From Corallococcus sp. (GTDB lineage: Bacteria > Bacillota > Clostridia > Christensenellales > CAG-314), in assembly GCA_023665205.1 (NCBI GenBank), contig JAMPEJ010000001.1:78955-142954 (forward strand): 64,000 nt of DNA, given 5' to 3'. Shown piece by piece: positions 14,810 to 55,966 of this stretch (within the stretch, counting starts at the first letter, position 1; the number at the start of each line of letters is the position of its first letter). The notes below the pieces were generated by a model. It was not told the DNA's origin, did no database searches, and saw nothing but the letters and a program-made list of their open reading frames with translations. Position numbers and translations under genes: made by a program.

Positions 14810-15223
14810 CTAAAATTCAACCGTTTCAACTTTCAGGTCGCAGTAGTATTCGGCGGCTTGACAGGTAAATTTCAGAACGCAATAATCCGGATCGCTAATG
14901 CCATACTTATAGATAAATCTGTCGCACGTCCTCCAAATTTCGTTTTTAGTCGATTGCTCTGTACACACTTCCATTTTGCCGATAATTGTTACGCCTTGAT
15001 AACGTATTTTTCCTCGTTTGTAAAAATACACGCACGCTTTGTCATCGGCAATAAACTGTTTTACCTTTTTAGACGACGTATTTGTTGAGAAATAAATCTC
15101 ACCGTCATCAATTTTTCTCGGAGCAAGCATCGCTCGGATTACAGGATATCCGTTTTCATCCACAGACGCAATAAACGCAGTTTTTTGTTTTGAAATAAAC
15201 TTAAAAATTCCATTTTTGTCCAT
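14810..15223 (-). CDS. Pyridoxamine 5'-phosphate oxidase family protein (general-stress-26-like)
   Basis: 137 aa with the pattern FIASVDENGYPVIRAMLAP...IYFSTNTSSKKVKQF. Strong RBS AAGGAGAAATA precedes the ATG. Confidence 0.75.
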   Translation of the reverse strand: MDKNGIFKFISKQKTAFIASVDENGYPVIRAMLAPRKIDDGEIYFSTNTSSKKVKQFIADDKACVYFYKRGKIRYQGVTIIGKMEVCTEQSTKNEIWRTCDRFIYKYGISDPDYCVLKFTCQAAEYYCDLKVETVEF

Positions 15224-44685: not shown

Positions 44686-45158
44686 TCAAAATACCTGCCT
44701 TGTGCAATTTTCTAAATTGTACACCGTACGATAAGTTTTGTCAATACGCTTTGGGCGCGTCACGTTTAACGTTTCAAAGTCAAAATCTATCAACAACACA
44801 TCCAAAAAATTTGATAAAATGCCACTAAATTTATATATTATGTCACGCATAATATTCTGCGAATCATCTATTTTCAAAGTACAAATACGGTTTGTCGCGA
44901 AACAAAAATATTTCATTACAATACAAGAACAACACACTAGCACAACCGCGAGCGCCGCAAAAACAATAAGTCATTTCCCAAATCACAGGCAATTATCGAA
45001 ACGATCGAGAAAATTTATGTTTTTTAGGTAAACATATTTATCGCACATATACGTCCGTTTCATTTTTTCCGTGTCTATCAGTAGCCTTATTCCTTATTAC
45101 TCCGAATAATTCTTTGCCACAATACAATATTTTACGTTATCTTAAATATACTATCAGT

Positions 45159-46193
45159 ATGAAAACAGTATTTTGCGGAGGCGGCACCGCGGGTCATGTA
45201 ACCCCCAACTTAGCGCTGATAGATCTATTGCAAGACTCTACAAACTTCTATATCGGTACAAACGGAATGGAAAAAACGCTTACCGCTCCGTATCTACAAA
45301 ACGGCAAAATTGCCGAGTTTTGCGAAATTTCCGCGACCAAATTCAGACGAAAGTTTACATTAAAAAATTTGCTATTGCCGTTTGCACTGTCCAAAAGCGT
45401 TCGCGAAGCAAAAAATCATCTTAAACGCATTAAGCCAAACGTAGTTTTCAGCAAAGGCGGCTACGTGGGGTTACCCGTAGTAATGGCAGCAAAATCGCTC
45501 AAAATTCCTGTAATAATCCACGAAAGCGATATGTCGTTAGGTCTTGCAAACAAAATTTCAGCACGCTACGCAGATAAACTTCTCACAGCCTATCCTTGTC
45601 ATAAAAAAGCTACTGTCGTTGGAGCCATTATACGCAAACAAACAATTAGCGGTAACCGCGCAAACGGATTATCAACTATGGGATTTGACGGCAGTAAACC
45701 GGTACTTTTGGTGATGGGCGGCAGCCTGGGAGCAAAAGCGTTAAACGAAGCAATTTGCCAAAATAAAAATCTGTCGGAAAAATTTGACATTTTCGTCATT
45801 TGTGGAAAGGGAAAAACCGTGCAATGCGACTTTGTCCGTCAAGCGGAATTCGTTTCCAATATCGGAGATATTTTTGCTGCAACTACCGTATGTATCACAA
45901 GAGCGGGCAGCAATTCCCTTGCCGAACTCACGCTGGCGCAGGTTCCGTTCGTTTCCGTTCCGTTGACAAAATGCTCTCGCGGAGAACAGGTTAAAAATGC
46001 CCGTTGGTTTGCCGAGAAAGGCTGTGGATTGTCCGTTTCCGAAGACAGTCTAGAGCAGAAGATCCCTCGCTACATTTCCGACGTTTTTGATAACAGATAT
46101 AATATCCAAGCGAAACAGCGGTTACAAAGCGGACTTTACGGCACAGACAAAGTAATAGAAGAAATTTCAAATTACCGAGTACAAAACGAATAA
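45159..46193 (+). CDS. murG: Undecaprenyldiphospho-muramoylpentapeptide beta-N-acetylglucosaminyltransferase
   Basis: MKTVFCGGGTAGHVTPNLAL (G-loop), HESDMSLGLANK, and GGSLGA...RAGSNSLAE. ATG at 45159 has no SD and lies 6 nt after a TATACT box (45147..45152). Confidence 0.9.
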   Translation: MKTVFCGGGTAGHVTPNLALIDLLQDSTNFYIGTNGMEKTLTAPYLQNGKIAEFCEISATKFRRKFTLKNLLLPFALSKSVREAKNHLKRIKPNVVFSKGGYVGLPVVMAAKSLKIPVIIHESDMSLGLANKISARYADKLLTAYPCHKKATVVGAIIRKQTISGNRANGLSTMGFDGSKPVLLVMGGSLGAKALNEAICQNKNLSEKFDIFVICGKGKTVQCDFVRQAEFVSNIGDIFAATTVCITRAGSNSLAELTLAQVPFVSVPLTKCSRGEQVKNARWFAEKGCGLSVSEDSLEQKIPRYISDVFDNRYNIQAKQRLQSGLYGTDKVIEEISNYRVQNE

Positions 46194-46256
46194 ACTTTCG
46201 ACAAAAATACCCCAAAAATATATTTGTATTTATTTTACTTTTACATGTTACACAAA

Positions 46257-46285
46257 GACCCGCACCAATTTATGCAGCGCGGGTC
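46257..46285. terminator. Hairpin between convergent murG and the WYL gene (probable shared terminator)
   Basis: GACCCGC...GCGGGTC 7-bp GC-rich stem. The flanking T-tracts are weak. Confidence 0.5.
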
Positions 46286-46317
46286 ATATTATTATAATTT
46301 TAATTTAACAGTGTAGT

Positions 46318-47235
46318 TCATTCTTTCCTATTCATCTCTGCAACGATCTTACAACGTTCCACCACGGCTTCTCTCAACCTGGCAGGTTTTTCCACACGCA
46401 CGCCGTCTCCCAAAGCTAGTATTTGGTTTATCAAGACGTCGTCAAACGGAAGCGCCGCTTTTGCAACGTATCCTTCACCAACTTGCGCAACACGCCCTAT
46501 ACCTAACCATTCTTCACAAGCAGTCAGCGCTTTATGTTCCAAAGATAAAATCACTTCGCAAATTTCTTTTCCACGCAAAACGTCCGTACCTATAACGCTG
46601 CTATCCACCTCGAAACTGCGAGGAATAAACCTTTCTCCAACGGATAATTTTACTATGCGCGAAATTTTAAAGTATCTAAAACCTTTCCGTAGCCTACAGA
46701 AACAATAAACGTACCAGCTGCCGTCTTTCAGTATCAAACAATACGGCTCAACAATTCTGAGAGTACCAGCTCCGGCCTTAGAATGGTACTCGATTTCACA
46801 CAGCATTTTTTTAGAAACGCAGTCGGATAACACGCTGACATAGTCACCCACGGAAAGATCCGACATATCGACAACCAATTGCTCGGATTTCAACACGGTC
46901 GCCCCCGTATGAGAACGTTTCAAGCCCGAAAGTTTTTGTACAGACATCTTAGTTACTTCGTCTTGAAGCGAAAAACTCTGCAAAGCAAAAATCAAGCGTC
47001 TATATTCTTCTTCTGTAAAAAACGTAGCGTTCAATTTGTAGGTATCTACTATTCCCCAACCGCCGCCGCGGCCAAGATGCGATTCTATCGGAACTCCGCC
47101 TTCGGAAAGCATTGCAATGTATCTGTAAACAGATCTCTTGCTAATTTCAAATCTGTTCGCCAATTCTTCGGCGGTAACCAACTTATCCGAAGCCAGCAAT
47201 GTTGACATTATTCCAACCAACACAGGTATTTGCAT
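46318..47235 (-). CDS. HTH plus WYL domain transcriptional regulator (YafY-like)
   Basis: N-terminal DeoR-type HTH (LVTAEELANRFEISKRSVYRYIAML) and a central WYL-type region (GSWYVYCFCRLRKGFRYFKISRI). 305 aa. Confidence 0.8.
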   Translation of the reverse strand: MQIPVLVGIMSTLLASDKLVTAEELANRFEISKRSVYRYIAMLSEGGVPIESHLGRGGGWGIVDTYKLNATFFTEEEYRRLIFALQSFSLQDEVTKMSVQKLSGLKRSHTGATVLKSEQLVVDMSDLSVGDYVSVLSDCVSKKMLCEIEYHSKAGAGTLRIVEPYCLILKDGSWYVYCFCRLRKGFRYFKISRIVKLSVGERFIPRSFEVDSSVIGTDVLRGKEICEVILSLEHKALTACEEWLGIGRVAQVGEGYVAKAALPFDDVLINQILALGDGVRVEKPARLREAVVERCKIVAEMNRKE

Positions 47236-47269
47236 TTTTCTTTCTCCAAATTAGTCATCTACAAAAAGA

Positions 47270-47298
47270 ATTATAAAATACTGACAATATATTGTCAA
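47270..47298 (-). promoter_or_regulatory. Consensus SigA promoter of the WYL gene, overlapped by a perfect 16-bp palindrome (candidate operator O1)
   Basis: Minus strand reads TTGACA (47298..47293), 17 nt, TATAAT (47275..47270). Palindrome TGACAATATATTGTCA at 47282..47297 covers the -35 and spacer. Confidence 0.65.
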
Positions 47299-47335
47299 CT
47301 TTTTTCAAAATATATTGAAAAAAATTAATAAACAC

Positions 47336-47368
47336 TGACATATAGTTGGCATATATACTTGGTATAAT
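47336..47368 (+). promoter_or_regulatory. Second, imperfect operator copy (O2) plus an extended -10 promoter facing away from the WYL gene
   Basis: TGACATATAGTTGGCA (47336..47351) keeps the outer half-sites TGACA-N6-TGkCA of O1. TGgTATAAT has its -10 at 47363..47368. Confidence 0.5.
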
Positions 47369-47445
47369 TTAATCACAAAACCAAAAAGGAGATAACGCAG
47401 TTTGCGAAACTAATAATAATAGCAAACTTGTGCCGAAACAACAAA

Positions 47446-47634
47446 ATGAATCACGATTGTTCCAAAGAATTCGATCTGAATTTAATCTATAAAAAATTGA
47501 CCTCCAAACGTCACTACACTCCAACCGTAAAAGCATGTGATTTTTTCACTCGTAAAACCGAATTGCAGTTGCTTCAAGACAAAATGGAAAAAATTATGCA
47601 GTCTCCACAAAAGCAAATTCAACAAACCCGCTAG
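47446..47634 (+). CDS. Possible small basic protein (62 aa), doubtful
   Basis: ATG ORF MNHDCSKEFDLNLIYKKLTSKRHYTPTVKACDFF... lies downstream of the divergent promoter but has no SD of its own. The only strong SD (AAGGAG, 47386..47391) precedes a 3-codon mini-ORF. Confidence 0.25.
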   Translation: MNHDCSKEFDLNLIYKKLTSKRHYTPTVKACDFFTRKTELQLLQDKMEKIMQSPQKQIQQTR

Positions 47635-47639
47635 ACGTA

Positions 47640-47673
47640 AAGCAAAATGCGCCTGTGCATATAAACAGGCGCA
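47640..47673 (-). terminator. Rho-independent terminator after ddl
   Basis: Perfect 9-bp stem TGCGCCTGT/ACAGGCGCA (47648..47673), followed on the minus strand by TTTTGCTTT. Confidence 0.7.
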
Positions 47674-47784
47674 CAAATATGACTATCGTTTTCCGTTCAC
47701 TTTATTTTACTAAAGCGACGCTTACGTACAAAAAATATATAACATCGTGCCGCACATCATTCCAAATAAGCAATTTTTACAAAT

Positions 47785-48867
47785 TTACTTTTTACATATC
47801 GAAACGCTTTCCAGCACATCAGAGACATACTTTCGGTTCAGTTTTTCCTGTTCTGCAAAATCCGATACGGCCTGATCAGTCAGAAGTCTTCCAAACTGCT
47901 TTGGCGTATATTTATTTTGCCACAAACCGTAAGATAGAGACCCCGGAATCGAATTTATTTCGTTTACGTATAATGCTCCTGAAACGTTATCAACCATATA
48001 ATCTATACGCACAACACCCTGCAATCCCAGTTTTTCGTATATTTCCGCAGTCAGTTTTTTAACGTCGATTGACAACTCAGAGTTTACCTCTCGGCTTCTT
48101 TCCCCGCATTTCTCACCGCGACGGTATTTATCTGCAAACGTCAATATGTCGTGCGTAGCAAACGGACGTTCCACAACGCTTATTTCCACGCCGTTTTTTG
48201 TGCGCATTGCTGCGCAATTTAGTTCATAGAAATCCGACAGACCTTTTTCACACAATACGCGCTTATCGTAACGAAGTGCCGCATTTAGTCCTTTTTCCAA
48301 TTCCAATCTGTCACGACAAAGCGCAACTCCTATGCTAGACCCCAAAGTCGACGGCTTAACGACAACAGGATAACCTAAATTTTCTATATTCTCAATATCC
48401 TTTTCGACAAATTCTCCAACGATTTCAACTCCGGGCAAAACACAAAAGTTTTCATATGTAAGAGCCTGTTTTGTAACTATTTTGTCCATTGTTACGGCCG
48501 AAGCAATAACGTCGCATCCAACGACAGGCAAATTAGACATTTTGCACAATGCGGCAACCGTACCGTCCTCGCCGCAATTACCGTGACAGCAGTTAACTAC
48601 AACGTCCACGTCAAATATTTTTTTGATTTTATTCTTTTGTATTACAGCTACTTGTTTACGGCCAAACAAAAAAGAAAGCTGTTGCTTACAAACTAAATCT
48701 TTGTGCCCTGTCGGCGTCAAATTATTCGGCACAAAGTAACACACGTTTTCTTTGGTAAAATACGCGCTGATAACGTTACCGTCAAAGTATCCTTTTGCCA
48801 AACACGCCGTTATAACAGAAATATCGTGTTCGCAGCTCTTTCCTCCGTAAGCAATCAATATGTTCAT
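47785..48867 (-). CDS. ddl: D-alanine--D-alanine ligase
   Basis: MNILIAYGGKSCEHDISVITA, ATP-grasp motifs (GYPVVVKPSTLGSSIG, VNEINSIPGS). ATG at 48867 after GGAGG. Confidence 0.92.
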   Translation of the reverse strand: MNILIAYGGKSCEHDISVITACLAKGYFDGNVISAYFTKENVCYFVPNNLTPTGHKDLVCKQQLSFLFGRKQVAVIQKNKIKKIFDVDVVVNCCHGNCGEDGTVAALCKMSNLPVVGCDVIASAVTMDKIVTKQALTYENFCVLPGVEIVGEFVEKDIENIENLGYPVVVKPSTLGSSIGVALCRDRLELEKGLNAALRYDKRVLCEKGLSDFYELNCAAMRTKNGVEISVVERPFATHDILTFADKYRRGEKCGERSREVNSELSIDVKKLTAEIYEKLGLQGVVRIDYMVDNVSGALYVNEINSIPGSLSYGLWQNKYTPKQFGRLLTDQAVSDFAEQEKLNRKYVSDVLESVSICKK

Positions 48868-48886
48868 TTCTATACCTCCATCGCCG

Positions 48887-50344
48887 TTAAACGTTAGCCA
48901 CGTCCGGCAAATCATTTTGAAAAAGCAAAAAACAATCCTTTACTATATACGGCTGCGCTAATTTTACAGCGGCATTCAAATTTTTGGCAATAATTACCGT
49001 TTCGCAATGTGCATTGCGCGCGCCCTCGCAAAGATACTTGGAATTTTTGCCAGTAAATATCAATACGTCGCAGACTTCCCCAAGCATTTGCCCGCACAAA
49101 ACGTTCATTTCTCGTCGTTTTTTGCCGCATTCTACAATTCCTTGTGAAACTGCTATTTTTTTACTACCGAATTGCACAAGCGTTTTACAACAACTTTCCA
49201 CACCTTTTATACTTCCGTTATAACTGTCATCCACAATATACGCAAAACCGTTATAGATAATCTGCATTCTATGGTCCGTTTGCTTTACAAATTGCGCGTT
49301 ATCAACAGTTTTTTCAAAACTCTGCCCCAACTTCAGACAGACAAATAAGCTCAAAGCAAAAGTATCCGTGCCGTACTGTGCTACCTGAGGAATACTCACT
49401 TCAGCACTTTTTCTTCCGTAGATTAACGTAAATTTAGTACCGCTCGGTTCTAGGCGCTTATCGCATATACGAACGCCGGTTTTCAAATATTTTTTGCAGT
49501 CGCCTACCGTCGCAAAATCGTGCACGCTTTTATCCGCCAATACGCAAAAACCGTCCGCAGGTAATCCAATGACTAATTCGCACTTCGTAGCAAGCAAATT
49601 TTCCCAAGTTTTGAACGTAGACATATGCTGTTCGCAAACGCCGGTCACTACCCCTACGCTAGGCGCATAAAGGTGCATCAGTTCTTCAATATCGCCTTTT
49701 TTTCGAGCGCCGAACTCTAAAATCAAATATTCGTATCCAGCCAAATCAGTATTATTTATAAATTTGGCAATACCCAACGGCGTGTTGCAACTACCCATAG
49801 GAGCAATACTTTTATCCAGTAAAGCGCACAACATATCTTTCGTGGACGTCTTACCGTAACTACCGGTAATCGCTATGACGGTCAAATCGCTTTGTCGCAA
49901 TTTTTCGCAGGCCAGGCGCAAAAACTTTTTACCGATTGCAATATCCGCAGGCAAACACAAAGCCCAAGACAGAAGCACCAACACCGGCAATATTAACACC
50001 CAAAAATGCAAAGCGTAGCAACAAACTGCGCACAAAATGACAAACTCCACACACATCATACGCAAAACGCGCGGAGTAAATTTCAAAGGGCTTTTTCTTT
50101 TAACAAATACGCAAGGCAAAGATAGAACTGTATAAATCCCGCACAAAACAGCTTCTATTGCAAAGAAATATCTCCACAAAACAGTCAATATTGCTGCCAG
50201 AAGCAAAACCGCAAAATACCAAGTAGCAAAAACTTTAATGTATCCGCGTTGCGGTCGGTATCCGGCGCTTTGCAACACGCGAAAACACTCCAAACTACAA
50301 CAAAACAATGCCGCCGCGCACCAAATTCCGTAAAAATACCTCAA
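48887..50344 (-). CDS. murF: Mur ligase family protein (MurF-like central and C-terminal domains) with an N-terminal polytopic membrane region
   Basis: P-loop AITGSYGKTSTKDM, EFGARKKGDI, VTGVCEQH and DDSYNGS. The first ~150 aa are 4-5 hydrophobic helices in place of the usual soluble N-domain. TTG start 6 nt after GGAGGA. Confidence 0.7.
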   Translation of the reverse strand: MRYFYGIWCAAALFCCSLECFRVLQSAGYRPQRGYIKVFATWYFAVLLLAAILTVLWRYFFAIEAVLCGIYTVLSLPCVFVKRKSPLKFTPRVLRMMCVEFVILCAVCCYALHFWVLILPVLVLLSWALCLPADIAIGKKFLRLACEKLRQSDLTVIAITGSYGKTSTKDMLCALLDKSIAPMGSCNTPLGIAKFINNTDLAGYEYLILEFGARKKGDIEELMHLYAPSVGVVTGVCEQHMSTFKTWENLLATKCELVIGLPADGFCVLADKSVHDFATVGDCKKYLKTGVRICDKRLEPSGTKFTLIYGRKSAEVSIPQVAQYGTDTFALSLFVCLKLGQSFEKTVDNAQFVKQTDHRMQIIYNGFAYIVDDSYNGSIKGVESCCKTLVQFGSKKIAVSQGIVECGKKRREMNVLCGQMLGEVCDVLIFTGKNSKYLCEGARNAHCETVIIAKNLNAAVKLAQPYIVKDCFLLFQNDLPDVANV

Positions 50345-52933: not shown

Positions 52934-53755
52934 TTAAAAGCGGTTAAACAACCGATGCGTCCCCTTGTAAATAAAAACTGTAATTATACATGTCAAAACT
53001 GTCTTAATTACATTAAAGAGCAACGTCCACCAAAGCATAGGCATTTGCACTTCAACTTCCTTCATTCCGTACATCGGCAGCAAAAACCACTGATTACAAA
53101 ACCACATAGCAATGCAAAAAACAATGCTGCTAAATATCAAGGCCAAGACAGCACACAATTTGTTTTTCTTTATCAAATAAATAACTCCCGCGACCAAGGC
53201 GTACAACGAACCGCTAACCAAATTAGATAAGTCTCCGACAAATCCGGTGCTGGTACCTCTTATCAAAAGTCCCAACCCAACTTTAACACCGTTGACTATC
53301 ACGCCAGTAATAGGTCCGAACATAAAAGATGCTAGCAAACTCGGAACGTCGGAAAAATTCAATTTAAGGTGAGGCGTTGCCGGCAATATCGGGAATTCGA
53401 TCAAGAGCAAAACTACAGCCATGGCCGATAAAATACTGATTTTAGCCAAATAGGACACAGAAGTTTTTGCAATTTTTTTGGCCTTTTGCCTCTTAGTCGA
53501 TTTAGACGTCGGATCTTTTTCCCCACTAATACTGTCATCGTGATCCGAAACGTTTTCCATACTTACTACCTGCTCACCGTCAGTAAAGTTTTCTAAGTTC
53601 ACGTCTCTATCGCATTTGACAGATTTTTTCTTTTTAACGCTTGTCTCGCCAACTAATTCAATCGCAGCGACACGCTCCGACTCCGAGAAATTTTGTTTTC
53701 CCGACTCTGCCAAGCAGTTTTTGCTCTTTTGCCTTTTTGAAGTTACATCTTTCAT
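52934..53755 (-). CDS. ribU: ECF transporter S component, riboflavin-type (RibU/FmnP-like), with a ~95-aa hydrophilic N-terminal extension
   Basis: The C-terminal ~180 aa match an ECF S component (LNFSDVPSLLASFMFGPITG, SGSLYALVAG). It is controlled by an FMN riboswitch. ATG at 53755 has a strong AAGGAG RBS. Confidence 0.8.
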   Translation of the reverse strand: MKDVTSKRQKSKNCLAESGKQNFSESERVAAIELVGETSVKKKKSVKCDRDVNLENFTDGEQVVSMENVSDHDDSISGEKDPTSKSTKRQKAKKIAKTSVSYLAKISILSAMAVVLLLIEFPILPATPHLKLNFSDVPSLLASFMFGPITGVIVNGVKVGLGLLIRGTSTGFVGDLSNLVSGSLYALVAGVIYLIKKNKLCAVLALIFSSIVFCIAMWFCNQWFLLPMYGMKEVEVQMPMLWWTLLFNVIKTVLTCIITVFIYKGTHRLFNRF

Positions 53756-54027: not shown

Positions 54028-54056
54028 ATTATATTACCGCAATACGACCTTGTCAA
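54028..54056 (-). promoter_or_regulatory. Consensus SigA promoter of the FMN riboswitch transcript
   Basis: Minus strand reads TTGACA (54056..54051), 17 nt, TATAAT (54033..54028). Confidence 0.65.
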
Positions 54057-54393: not shown

Positions 54394-55044
54394 CTAATCT
54401 TTGCAAATCTCAACACCGCAACTGGCACCGATACGACTAGCACCGGCATTTATCATGGCCATTGCCTCATCGTAATTGTGCACGCCGCCGCTTGCCTTTA
54501 CCTTGACGCCGGCAGTGGCAACTGTATCGTGCATCAGAGCAACCGCTTCAACAGTAGCCCCGCCTTTGCCAAAACCGGTACTTGTTTTTACGTAATCCGC
54601 GCCTGCCGCTACAGATGCTTTGCAAGCCGCTACAATTTGTTTATCACTTAAATTACACGTTTCCAAAATTACTTTCAAAGTCAACTCGCCGCACGCTTTT
54701 TTTATAGCGGCAATTTCTTTTTGAACCTTGCCCCAAGCATTACTCTTAGCCCAAGATTGATTCATAACCATATCAATTTCCGTCGCGCCTTGTTTTACGG
54801 CAATTTTGGTTTCGTCTACTTTAGCTTTAGTTGCGTTTTCTCCCAAAGGAAACCCTATTACCGTACAAACTTTGACGTCCGTTCCGTCTAACAATGCAGC
54901 CGCATCCTTAACGTGGCACGGGTTCACGCACACCGAAGCAAAATGATACGCTTTCGCTTCTTCACACAACGTTTCGATTTGCTTTTTCGTTGCAGGTTTC
55001 AACAGCGTGTGATCTATCATTTTTGCAATCTGTTTCTTATCCAT
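54394..55044 (-). CDS. deoC: Deoxyribose-phosphate aldolase
   Basis: IDHTLLKP, ASVCVNP, and KVILE...DYVKTSTGF (Schiff-base lysine context). 216 aa. Confidence 0.92.
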   Translation of the reverse strand: MDKKQIAKMIDHTLLKPATKKQIETLCEEAKAYHFASVCVNPCHVKDAAALLDGTDVKVCTVIGFPLGENATKAKVDETKIAVKQGATEIDMVMNQSWAKSNAWGKVQKEIAAIKKACGELTLKVILETCNLSDKQIVAACKASVAAGADYVKTSTGFGKGGATVEAVALMHDTVATAGVKVKASGGVHNYDEAMAMINAGASRIGASCGVEICKD

Positions 55045-55543: not shown

Positions 55544-55966
55544 ATGCAACAAACAAAAAAAATATATCTAATTTTATTACCGATAATAGCGCTTGTGCTA
55601 CTGCTTTTGCCCTGTACTGCTTTTGCCGACGTATCCAAACAAGAAACGGAAATTGCCGAACTTGCACAAACGCGCGATCAGGTCAAATCCGCAAAATGCA
55701 TTGTATACCAACGTGCCTGTATAATTGCAATTCAAACTGAAAAATTTACAAACAAAACAGAGTACGATCAATTTCGTCAAGAATTGGAAAACGAAATCTT
55801 AGAAAAATACAATTTAGATAAAGTTGTAATTAGTCGTAGTCCGAAAGTAATGCACGCTATTTGCCAATTGGAAAAAATGAGCGAAAGCGAGCGTCAACAG
55901 GCTATCGAAAAATTCTTACAGCAACACGGCGATACGGAACGTCCTCCTATGATCCAACCAAGATAA
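55544..55966 (+). CDS. YhcN/YlaJ-like sporulation lipoprotein (tentative)
   Basis: Signal peptide with LLPC. The later pattern V.SAKCIVYQRACIIAIQTEK...VVISRSPKVMHAI resembles the Spore_YhcN_YlaJ family. RBS AAAGGAG. Confidence 0.5.
   Translation: MQQTKKIYLILLPIIALVLLLLPCTAFADVSKQETEIAELAQTRDQVKSAKCIVYQRACIIAIQTEKFTNKTEYDQFRQELENEILEKYNLDKVVISRSPKVMHAICQLEKMSESERQQAIEKFLQQHGDTERPPMIQPR

Follow-up and report, generated by a model that had tools for sequence, protein, structure and literature searches.

Within the 64,000-nucleotide (nt) stretch of contig JAMPEJ010000001.1 analyzed here, which we call the window, a gene for a WYL-domain transcription factor stands back to back with a 62-codon gene for a small protein, and the 210-bp intergenic control region between them holds two operators, O1 and O2, that are conserved at fixed distances from the two promoters. 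By its pattern of substitution, the 62-codon open reading frame (ORF) is a real gene under purifying selection, and its product is a member of a clade-restricted, previously undescribed family of soluble helical proteins with no detectable relatives. From the placement of the operators, we propose that the regulator would activate the small gene at O2 and repress its own gene at O1, a model that we regard as evenly poised between right and wrong. The first-pass annotation of this locus had seen an autoregulated WYL switch with an RNA or a protein as its output; two conserved operators and a divergent small-protein gene support the switch, and the RNA output falls away.

All comparisons draw on the window and 47 related loci (48 loci, ~340 kb), cited below by L numbers. 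Upstream regions were aligned for 39 genome loci and then for 7 closer metagenomic loci, and operators were counted over 44 orthologous upstream regions. Read along the plus strand, the loci share one layout: the -10 element of the regulator promoter (Pwyl), 6 nt, O1, a spacer, O2, 11-12 nt that include the TG of the small-gene promoter (Psmall), the TAnAAT -10 element of Psmall and the leader, whose consensus the orthologs follow with GGAG and then ATG. In the window, the module comprises:

46318..47235, minus strand: WYL regulator gene, encoding a 305-amino-acid (aa) winged helix-turn-helix (wHTH)-WYL-WCX transcription factor of the YafY family, identified by Pfam, orthologs and Foldseek
47270..47275, minus strand: Pwyl -10 element, TATAAT, with a match of at least 5/6 in 39/39 loci and 6 nt from O1 in 37/39
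47282..47297, no strand: operator O1, TGACAATATATTGTCA, a perfect palindrome; TGNCA-N6-TGTCA in orthologs
47293..47298, minus strand: Pwyl -35 element, TTGACA, perfect in 39/39 loci and made up of the distal O1 half-site plus one base
47298..47335, no strand: A/T-rich spacer between O1 and O2, 38 bp, with phased A- and T-tracts; of fixed length in orthologs (37-38 bp, likewise A/T-rich)
47336..47351, no strand: operator O2, TGACATATAGTTGGCA; TG(A/C/T)CA-N6-TG(G/T)CA in orthologs
47360..47368, plus strand: Psmall TG-extended -10 element, TGgTATAAT (TGGTATAAT), with no -35 hexamer
47369..47385, plus strand: conserved start of the leader, consensus tAGACACAAAA, with high column conservation; probable transcription start region
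47446..47634, plus strand: small-protein gene, 62 aa, ATG start with no Shine-Dalgarno (SD) sequence directly upstream; orthologs in 41 loci

The 62-codon gene and its protein family

Set against conservation of an RNA structure, it is the 62-aa frame that relatives preserve, as a protein, in 41 loci. The proportion of nonsynonymous differences (pN) between orthologs is 0.05-0.29 versus 0.22-0.94 for synonymous differences (pS), with synonymous sites near saturation, and the ratio of nonsynonymous to synonymous rates (dN/dS), where calculable, is 0.07-0.26. The window and L042, both of which bear an insertion described below, give a pN of 0.16 and a pS of 0.80. The family shares the motifs M-K-Y-D-C-x-x-E-F-D-L-x-x-I-Y-x-K-L-T, V-K-A-x-x-F-F and L-x-x-[LF]-Q-x-x-M. 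Because the ORF is conserved as a protein with saturated synonymous change, and because Rfam at permissive E-values returned no match over 45000-49000, the small-RNA reading is unsupported; of the two outputs offered earlier, a small RNA or a small protein, the second stands.

Searching 5.8 billion proteins with a profile gave 97 relatives of 47-96 aa, none carrying a Pfam domain, and HMMER, run exhaustively on 1.84 billion cluster representatives, gave 64 proteins, which measure 42-104 aa except for three weak partial matches in longer proteins. A single-sequence search with the small protein returned only the protein itself, no match was found in Pfam, NCBIfam, PADLOC, PHROGs or the sequences of the Protein Data Bank (PDB), and a Foldseek search against the PDB was empty. 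AlphaFold2 (AF2) predicts three short helices (residues 11-19, 30-33 and 39-52) with a mean predicted local distance difference test score (pLDDT) of 77 and a predicted template modeling score (pTM) of 0.34. There is no hydrophobic or membrane segment, the maximum 15-residue hydropathy being -0.17 in the window protein and no higher than 1.65 in any family member. The N terminus is mostly acidic within the family; the C-terminal tail is variable and often basic. Nor does the protein, which lacks a transmembrane segment, resemble the small division inhibitors DidA, SidA, YneA and SosA in sequence or fold (Pfam, NCBIfam, PHROGs, PADLOC, PDB, Foldseek).

In other loci (L002, L007, L019), the small gene is followed by its own hairpin and T-run or by a bidirectional terminator, and thus it is monocistronic. 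Two hairpins flank the gene pair in the window:

46257..46285, minus strand: terminator-like hairpin and T-run 3' of the WYL gene, 11 pairs, 7 of them G-C
47647..47674, minus strand: terminator hairpin shared with the convergent ddl gene; its T-run is on the minus strand only, so it serves ddl

Transcription of the window's small gene may thus continue into the 3' end of ddl, antisense to that gene. In two loci, L014 and L016, both operators and the -10 element are retained and the small ORF looks decayed: L014 has ATT for ATG and no EFD motif, and the L016 frame diverges after ~7 residues into a peptide rich in Cys, Lys and Arg. Such decay may mean that the regulator has other targets, or that the effector is dispensable.

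Two operators in register with two promoters

The window holds exactly two matches to the operator pattern TGNCA-N6-TGNCA, 54 bp apart, where 0.63 matches are expected per 64 kb. O1 and O2 are both present in 39 of the 44 orthologous upstream regions, offset by 53 bp in 16 loci, 54 bp in 22 and 55 bp in one (about five helical turns), and all but 3 of the pattern matches over the 48 loci belong to this pair. The module only seems to be missing from L010 and L024, an artefact of a 520-nt upstream cut; the operators and the small gene lie further out, the entire module being present beyond ~500-650 nt of extra DNA. This conservation of both sites across orthologs is the strongest evidence that they did not arise by chance, and it extends to the whole clade the operator over the WYL promoter that the first-pass annotation had picked out as a perfect palindrome in the window.

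The two operators are not identical in their half-sites. The earlier description of O2 as a degenerate copy was right as to the copy itself, but not in assigning it the same outer half-sites, which are TGACA/TGGCA in O2 versus TGACA/TGTCA in O1; TG.CA alone is invariant. The third half-site base of O2 varies among orthologs (A/C/T on the left, T/G/A on the right), and some of the variants are perfect palindromes: TGCCATATATATGGCA in L021, L027 and L032, and TGACAAATATTTGTCA in L026. Such symmetry fits recognition by a dimer for which TG.CA would be what matters. In L015, L035 and L039, the center of O1 measures 7 nt instead of 6. The small protein of this subclade is extended N-terminally by 5-11 residues, and operator and effector may co-vary.

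Beyond the pair, no operator-like site precedes murG, ddl or the Mur ligase gene in any of the 48 loci, and the only further candidate in the window is a single near match at 14858..14875, with one mismatch and within an ORF. A wider regulon was considered and dropped, matches outside the O1/O2 pair being at chance level in the 48 loci.

Pwyl reads TTGACA-17-TATAAT (47298..47270, minus strand), a match of 12/12 to the consensus that confirms the promoter first assigned to the WYL gene. Perfect copies of this arrangement number two in the 64-kb window versus none in 100 shuffles. O1 overlaps the -35 element and spacer of Pwyl, and on inspection of the sequence an A-tract directly 5' of the -35 resembles a proximal UP element. 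On the other side of the control region, the outward-facing TGgTATAAT promoter annotated previously is likewise conserved: the Psmall -10 element (TAnAAT) lies 11-12 nt past O2 in 39/39 loci and carries a TGn extension in 32 of them. No -35 element accompanies it, as the best hexamer at a spacing of 16-18 nt matches at 3/6 positions or fewer in all 39 loci. O2 is centered on this vacant -35 position; it had been placed where a -35 would be, which is true of its center but not of its half-sites, neither of which lies at -35 spacing. O1 sits 5-6 bp nearer its -10 than O2 does.

Among orthologs, the WYL promoter and the WYL start codon stand from ~25 nt to >600 nt apart (L010:3500-4000, L024:3370-4000, L028, L040), and in this interval L040 has about four tandem copies of a ~24-nt unit (TGTGTGTTTTTGCGGTGTTTTGA). 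This variable segment looks like an insertion hot spot or a long 5' leader of variable length.

The regulator and its proposed mode of control

The protein encoded at 46318..47235 matches the Pfam families HTH_11 (9e-12), WYL (1.5e-16) and WCX (2.2e-7) in the N-to-C order of YafY-type factors, so the gene was correctly delimited when it was first called a WYL/HTH gene; the generic WYL model of PADLOC also matches it (1e-45). Orthologs with 62-90% identity occur in many gut metagenome-assembled genomes (MAGs) labeled Candidatus Fimimonas, Clostridia, Christensenellaceae or Oscillospiraceae. In Foldseek, the AF2 model of the regulator finds PafBC, DriD, CapW and BrxR as its best matches (E 5e-12 to 1e-7). 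PafBC and DriD are the best matches by sequence and fold, although DriD does not appear in the sequence-search list. Six residues, Ser152, Arg160, Arg181, Arg183, Arg187 and Arg193, are invariant among the orthologs and point to a basic surface. In the alignment, Ser152 corresponds to a serine of BrxR, and Arg160, Arg181, Arg187 and Arg193 correspond to arginines of BrxR and PafB; the two arginines that flank the WYL tripeptide are absent from the regulator.

WYL repressors such as CapW and BrxR have an RWHVR motif, a helix-β-hairpin linker and a defense context, and single-stranded DNA (ssDNA) releases them from DNA; the WYL activators DriD, PafBC and SiwR have a three-helix bundle, act in damage responses and are stimulated by ssDNA (PMC11662680, PMC10853764, PMC12041258, PMC10693628). 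The RWHVR repressor motif, as defined in PMC11662680, is not present in our regulator, whose WYL strand reads G-S-W-Y-V-Y (SWYVY). For the linker between its wHTH and WYL domains, AF2 predicts helices at residues 75-88, 93-109 and 127-141 and no β-hairpin, at a pLDDT of 23-64; if correct, this linker would match the three-helix bundle of DriD and PafBC. With PafBC and DriD as best matches and a housekeeping gene context, the SWYVY strand and the three predicted linker helices lean toward an activator. An assignment to the activator or repressor subclass from structure was dropped, the regulator model being too poor to decide it.

The register of O2 can be compared with that of DriD. In a cryogenic electron microscopy study of 2026, the DriD palindrome overlaps the position of the missing -35 and sigma region 4 occupies the opposite DNA face (PMC13004042). 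In the didA oligonucleotides of that study, an engineered 'optimal -35' replaces the center of the DriD site, and by our reading 10-11 nt separate the end of the proximal half-site from the -10 (PMC13004042). The DriD site itself is xGAC-N7-GTCx (CGAC-N7-GTCG) with an AT-rich center (PMC10853764).

Several features of the present module are similar to those of DriD from Caulobacter crescentus, which acts at the didA, bapE and driD promoters. DriD is a homodimeric wHTH-WYL-WCX factor, and our regulator has the same domains and presumably also forms a dimer. Both recognize, or are predicted to recognize, a palindrome with GAC/GTC cores and an AT-rich center, TGAC-N8-GTCA here versus N7 in DriD, and both sites cover a vacant -35, the interval to the -10 being constant (10-11 nt for DriD, 11-12 nt here). 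Each regulator has a site in its own promoter and a small protein, DidA in the case of DriD, as a key output. The primary differences are in phylum, with only remote sequence similarity, and in the regulator's own promoter: here it is a full consensus with the site moved 5-6 bp toward the -10, which predicts autorepression versus the autoactivation reported for driD. The target here is adjacent and divergent, and its product is soluble, whereas DidA is a membrane protein.

In the model that we favor, a regulator dimer would bind both O1 and O2. At O1, it would compete with sigma region 4 and so repress its own promoter, which is very strong in itself; autorepression is what one would naturally predict because O1 contains the consensus -35 and lies closer to its -10, and a promoter of 12/12 consensus is so strong that it needs restraint. 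At O2, the regulator would stand in the DriD register and would most likely activate Psmall upon binding of a ligand to the WYL domain, most plausibly ssDNA by analogy with other WYL factors. The absence of a -35 from Psmall in 39/39 loci, together with a proximal O2 half-site that ends 11-12 nt before the -10, argues for activation at this site. The output would be a burst of a small cytoplasmic helical protein. Most cytosolic small proteins act through partner binding, and this one probably binds a partner protein in the manner of a checkpoint-type effector; if the regulator senses ssDNA, it would be an effector of stress or damage.

Several observations weigh against activation at O2. The TG extension of the Psmall -10, conserved in 32/39 loci, could make the promoter activator-independent, which favors repression at O2, and, compared with DriD promoters, the center of O2 is 1-1.5 bp more distant from the -10. 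CapW (1.4e-9) and BrxR (2e-8) score nearly as well as the activators, which makes the subclass assignment weak, and the AF2 model of the regulator is of low confidence (mean pLDDT 57; template modeling score ~0.25 in Foldseek). The ssDNA ligand is assumed by analogy, and regulator binding, transcript starts and expression are all predicted from sequence, the hosts being uncultured.

These points lend weight to a switch of the CapW/BrxR type that works by repression only, in which ligand-free regulator would block both promoters at O1 and O2 and ligand would release it, so that both genes are derepressed together. We consider such a switch plausible, though less likely than activation at O2. 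Both operators do lie within core promoter DNA, a TG-extended -10 like that of Psmall can function without a -35, and a consensus Pwyl implies a regulator that is normally bound, to avoid overproduction. CapW and BrxR, which are significant fold and sequence matches of our regulator, share its domain order and have palindromic operators in a bidirectional promoter or in their own. CapW governs a bidirectional promoter through a palindromic site from which ssDNA releases it (PMC11662680), and BrxR uses two boxes in its island (PMC9122601). Against repression at both sites stand the missing RWHVR motif, replaced by SWYVY, the helical rather than helix-β-hairpin linker of the low-confidence model and the absence of defense genes nearby. 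In addition, O2 matches the DriD activation register and is 5-6 bp off that of O1, an arrangement for which pure occlusion would have no need.

Two other activators provide partial parallels to activation at O2. SiwR, encoded next to its target operon and divergent from it, binds a palindrome inside the core promoter, and promoters that depend on PafBC, the best sequence and fold match of our regulator, lack a -35. The sites of both factors differ from O2 in occupying the '-26 region', between -35 and -10, and the two factors control enzymes or a large regulon instead of one small protein. PafBC, moreover, is a heterodimer with a non-palindromic site and binds only together with RNA polymerase.

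It is highly improbable that the dyads are bound by another protein, such as a CRP/FNR-type or other global regulator, with the WYL linkage incidental. Some CRP/FNR-family proteins recognize TGTCA-N6-TGACA-like sites, which the TGNCA-N6-TGNCA pattern resembles, the half-site also resembles the -35 consensus, and the assignment of the operators to the WYL factor is itself predicted from sequence. Wherever a locus is informative, the O1/O2 pair nevertheless accompanies the WYL gene and keeps a fixed distance from each -10 element, and the 3 background matches in ~340 kb, none of them before neighboring genes, do not resemble a global regulon. WYL factors as a rule have a palindrome next to their own gene (68/69 DriD homologs, 193/347 BrxR homologs), and the half-site architecture is like that of the DriD site.

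Taken further, activation at O2 would make the pair a Firmicute counterpart of the SOS-independent DriD-DidA pathway, an extension that we find distinctly doubtful. A core-genome ssDNA sensor would switch on a new soluble checkpoint protein of 55-65 aa that pauses cell-wall synthesis, division or sporulation, and one regulator would exert opposite effects because its two sites stand half a helical turn apart in register. Sda, MciZ and DidA would be functional parallels to such a checkpoint protein and are unrelated to it. The lexA-yneA and lexA-sosA loci of Firmicutes likewise place a damage-responsive regulator back to back with a small effector and operators between them. With these the likeness is one of analogy only, in that a regulator diverges from a small effector; they differ in belonging to the LexA family and in that YneA and SosA are membrane-anchored division inhibitors.

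No description of the module was found in the searchable literature. WYL regulators, a topical family of ssDNA sensors, have so far been placed in proteobacterial and actinobacterial damage responses and in phage-defense islands; this locus would add a conserved, chromosomal, non-defense example from uncultured gut Clostridia. WYL factors whose palindromic sites lie in a bidirectional promoter are a known kind, and what distinguishes the present case is the uncharacterized effector family, the only local output of the regulator, and the two-register operator layout, which predicts opposite outcomes at the two sites. If the small protein is truly a stress checkpoint effector, it offers a way into damage and stress control in a poorly studied gut lineage. 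Otherwise, a well-defined regulator-target pair can still be annotated, and the impression of an 'odd transcript' is corrected.

The leader of the small gene in the window

Of the 41 orthologs that have the small ORF, 37 place GGAG 6-10 nt before ATG or GTG. The others are the window, L042, L045 and L046, in which an insertion of ~45 nt (~47399-47445 in the window) parts the SD from the ATG; this insertion is absent from the equally close relatives L043, L044, L047 and L048. The leader of the window contains:

47386..47391, plus strand: SD sequence AAGGAG, the ancestral ribosome-binding site of the small gene; aligns with the GGAG of orthologs and is kept in all four insertion-bearing loci
47396..47432, plus strand: hairpin within the insertion, 10 pairs with a 16-nt loop, -10.4 kcal/mol, z = -1.1
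47402..47413, plus strand: mini-ORF TTG CGA AAC TAA, 3 codons, window-specific, probably without function

The AAGGAG, the mini-ORF with its four in-frame stops (TAA TAA TAA TAG), the GTTTGC...GCAAAC stem-loop and the SD-less 62-codon ATG ORF had all been located correctly. Their reading as an unusual transcript does not hold: the mini-ORF, the stops and the 'missing' SD are products of a lineage-specific insertion rather than designed features, the orthologs keeping a close GGAG.

The hairpin, with a core stem of AGTTTGC/GCAAACT that the predicted fold extends, forms with 10-11 bp in all four loci. Its stem is near-identical among them (GCAAAAGTTT/AAACTTTTGC), with a G-U pair in L046 and a remodeled stem in the window, whereas the loops bear no relation to one another. 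All four loci keep the SD, even though synonymous sites have reached saturation between the window and L042. Closing the hairpin would reduce the SD-ATG distance from 52-58 nt to 12-17 nt. Since SD and stem are both retained, the hairpin probably narrows the gap, and we prefer to read the leader of the window as a split ribosome-binding site, probable though weakly supported, in which the stem would bring the SD nearer the ATG and translation would be weaker or conditional. Phage T4 offers a precedent in genes 38 and 25, where a hairpin between SD and AUG cuts a spacing that would otherwise not function from 22 to 5 nt and from 27 to 11 nt, respectively (PMC3014915). The split site is weakened by a closed spacing of 12-17 nt here, which exceeds the 5 and 11 nt of the T4 cases, by a hairpin no more stable than shuffled sequence (z ~ -1) and by a possible compensatory change in one pair only.

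Three other functions for the leader were rejected. Attenuation by the mini-ORF, or ribosome bypass, fails in that L042, L045 and L046 have no ATG, GTG or TTG at its position. A start at TTG 47428, which would give 68 aa, is in frame only in the window and L045 and not in L042 or L046, and the conserved MKYDC N terminus favors ATG 47446. The hairpin is not followed by a U-run, as an intrinsic terminator would be. An account of the divergent transcript as a regulatory RNA or attenuator, with the 62-codon ORF no gene at all, draws on the window alone, with its strong SD, 3-codon ORF, four stops and hairpin before a long ORF without an SD, and is essentially refuted by the conservation of that ORF as a protein in 41 loci and also between insertion-bearing genomes, by the normal SD-ATG arrangement of the orthologs, by the missing mini-ORF in the other insertion-bearing loci and by the lack of an Rfam match and of a U-run.

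Genomic setting

Throughout the clade, the genes follow the order Mur ligase (murF)-ddl, small gene, WYL gene, murG, interrupted here and there by an insertion. The neighbors in the window are housekeeping genes (murG, ddl, the Mur ligase gene, hydrolases, gyrase or topoisomerase IV subunits, TsaE/TsaB), no defense system lies near the locus and PADLOC is empty for the small protein; the locus is part of the core chromosome, neither a defense island nor a mobile element. The position between ddl and murG is no evidence for a cell-wall role, since those genes have no operator before them and synteny is expected within a narrow clade, and an envelope or division role of the small protein, which has no membrane segment, is speculative. 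A mouse-gut MAG, GCA_023666325.1, carries a 62-aa protein and intergenic DNA identical to those of the window.

The window has 41.6% G+C, promoters and SDs of Firmicute type and a gene for a YhcN/YlaJ sporulation lipoprotein (55544..55966). NCBI taxonomy (taxid 2840648) places Candidatus Fimimonas in the Myxococcaceae, and the matching MAG is named 'Corallococcus sp.'. Given the G+C content and the sporulation lipoprotein, the 'Corallococcus/Myxococcaceae' label is almost certainly a taxonomy error.

The second perfect TTGACA-17-TATAAT of the window (54028..54056, minus strand) lies between a gene for the S component of an energy-coupling factor (ECF) transporter (52934..53755) and a DeoC-family aldolase gene (54394..55044). 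In MAG HAN105, an additional ORF of 235 aa with no Pfam match (L020:2760-3467, minus strand) is found between ddl and the small gene. The Mur-ligase ORF of the window (48887..50344) measures 485 aa from its first TTG, with a 29-nt overlap with ddl; the public annotation of the same genome (L001:4442-5641) gives a Mur ligase of 399 aa, so its start codon is uncertain.

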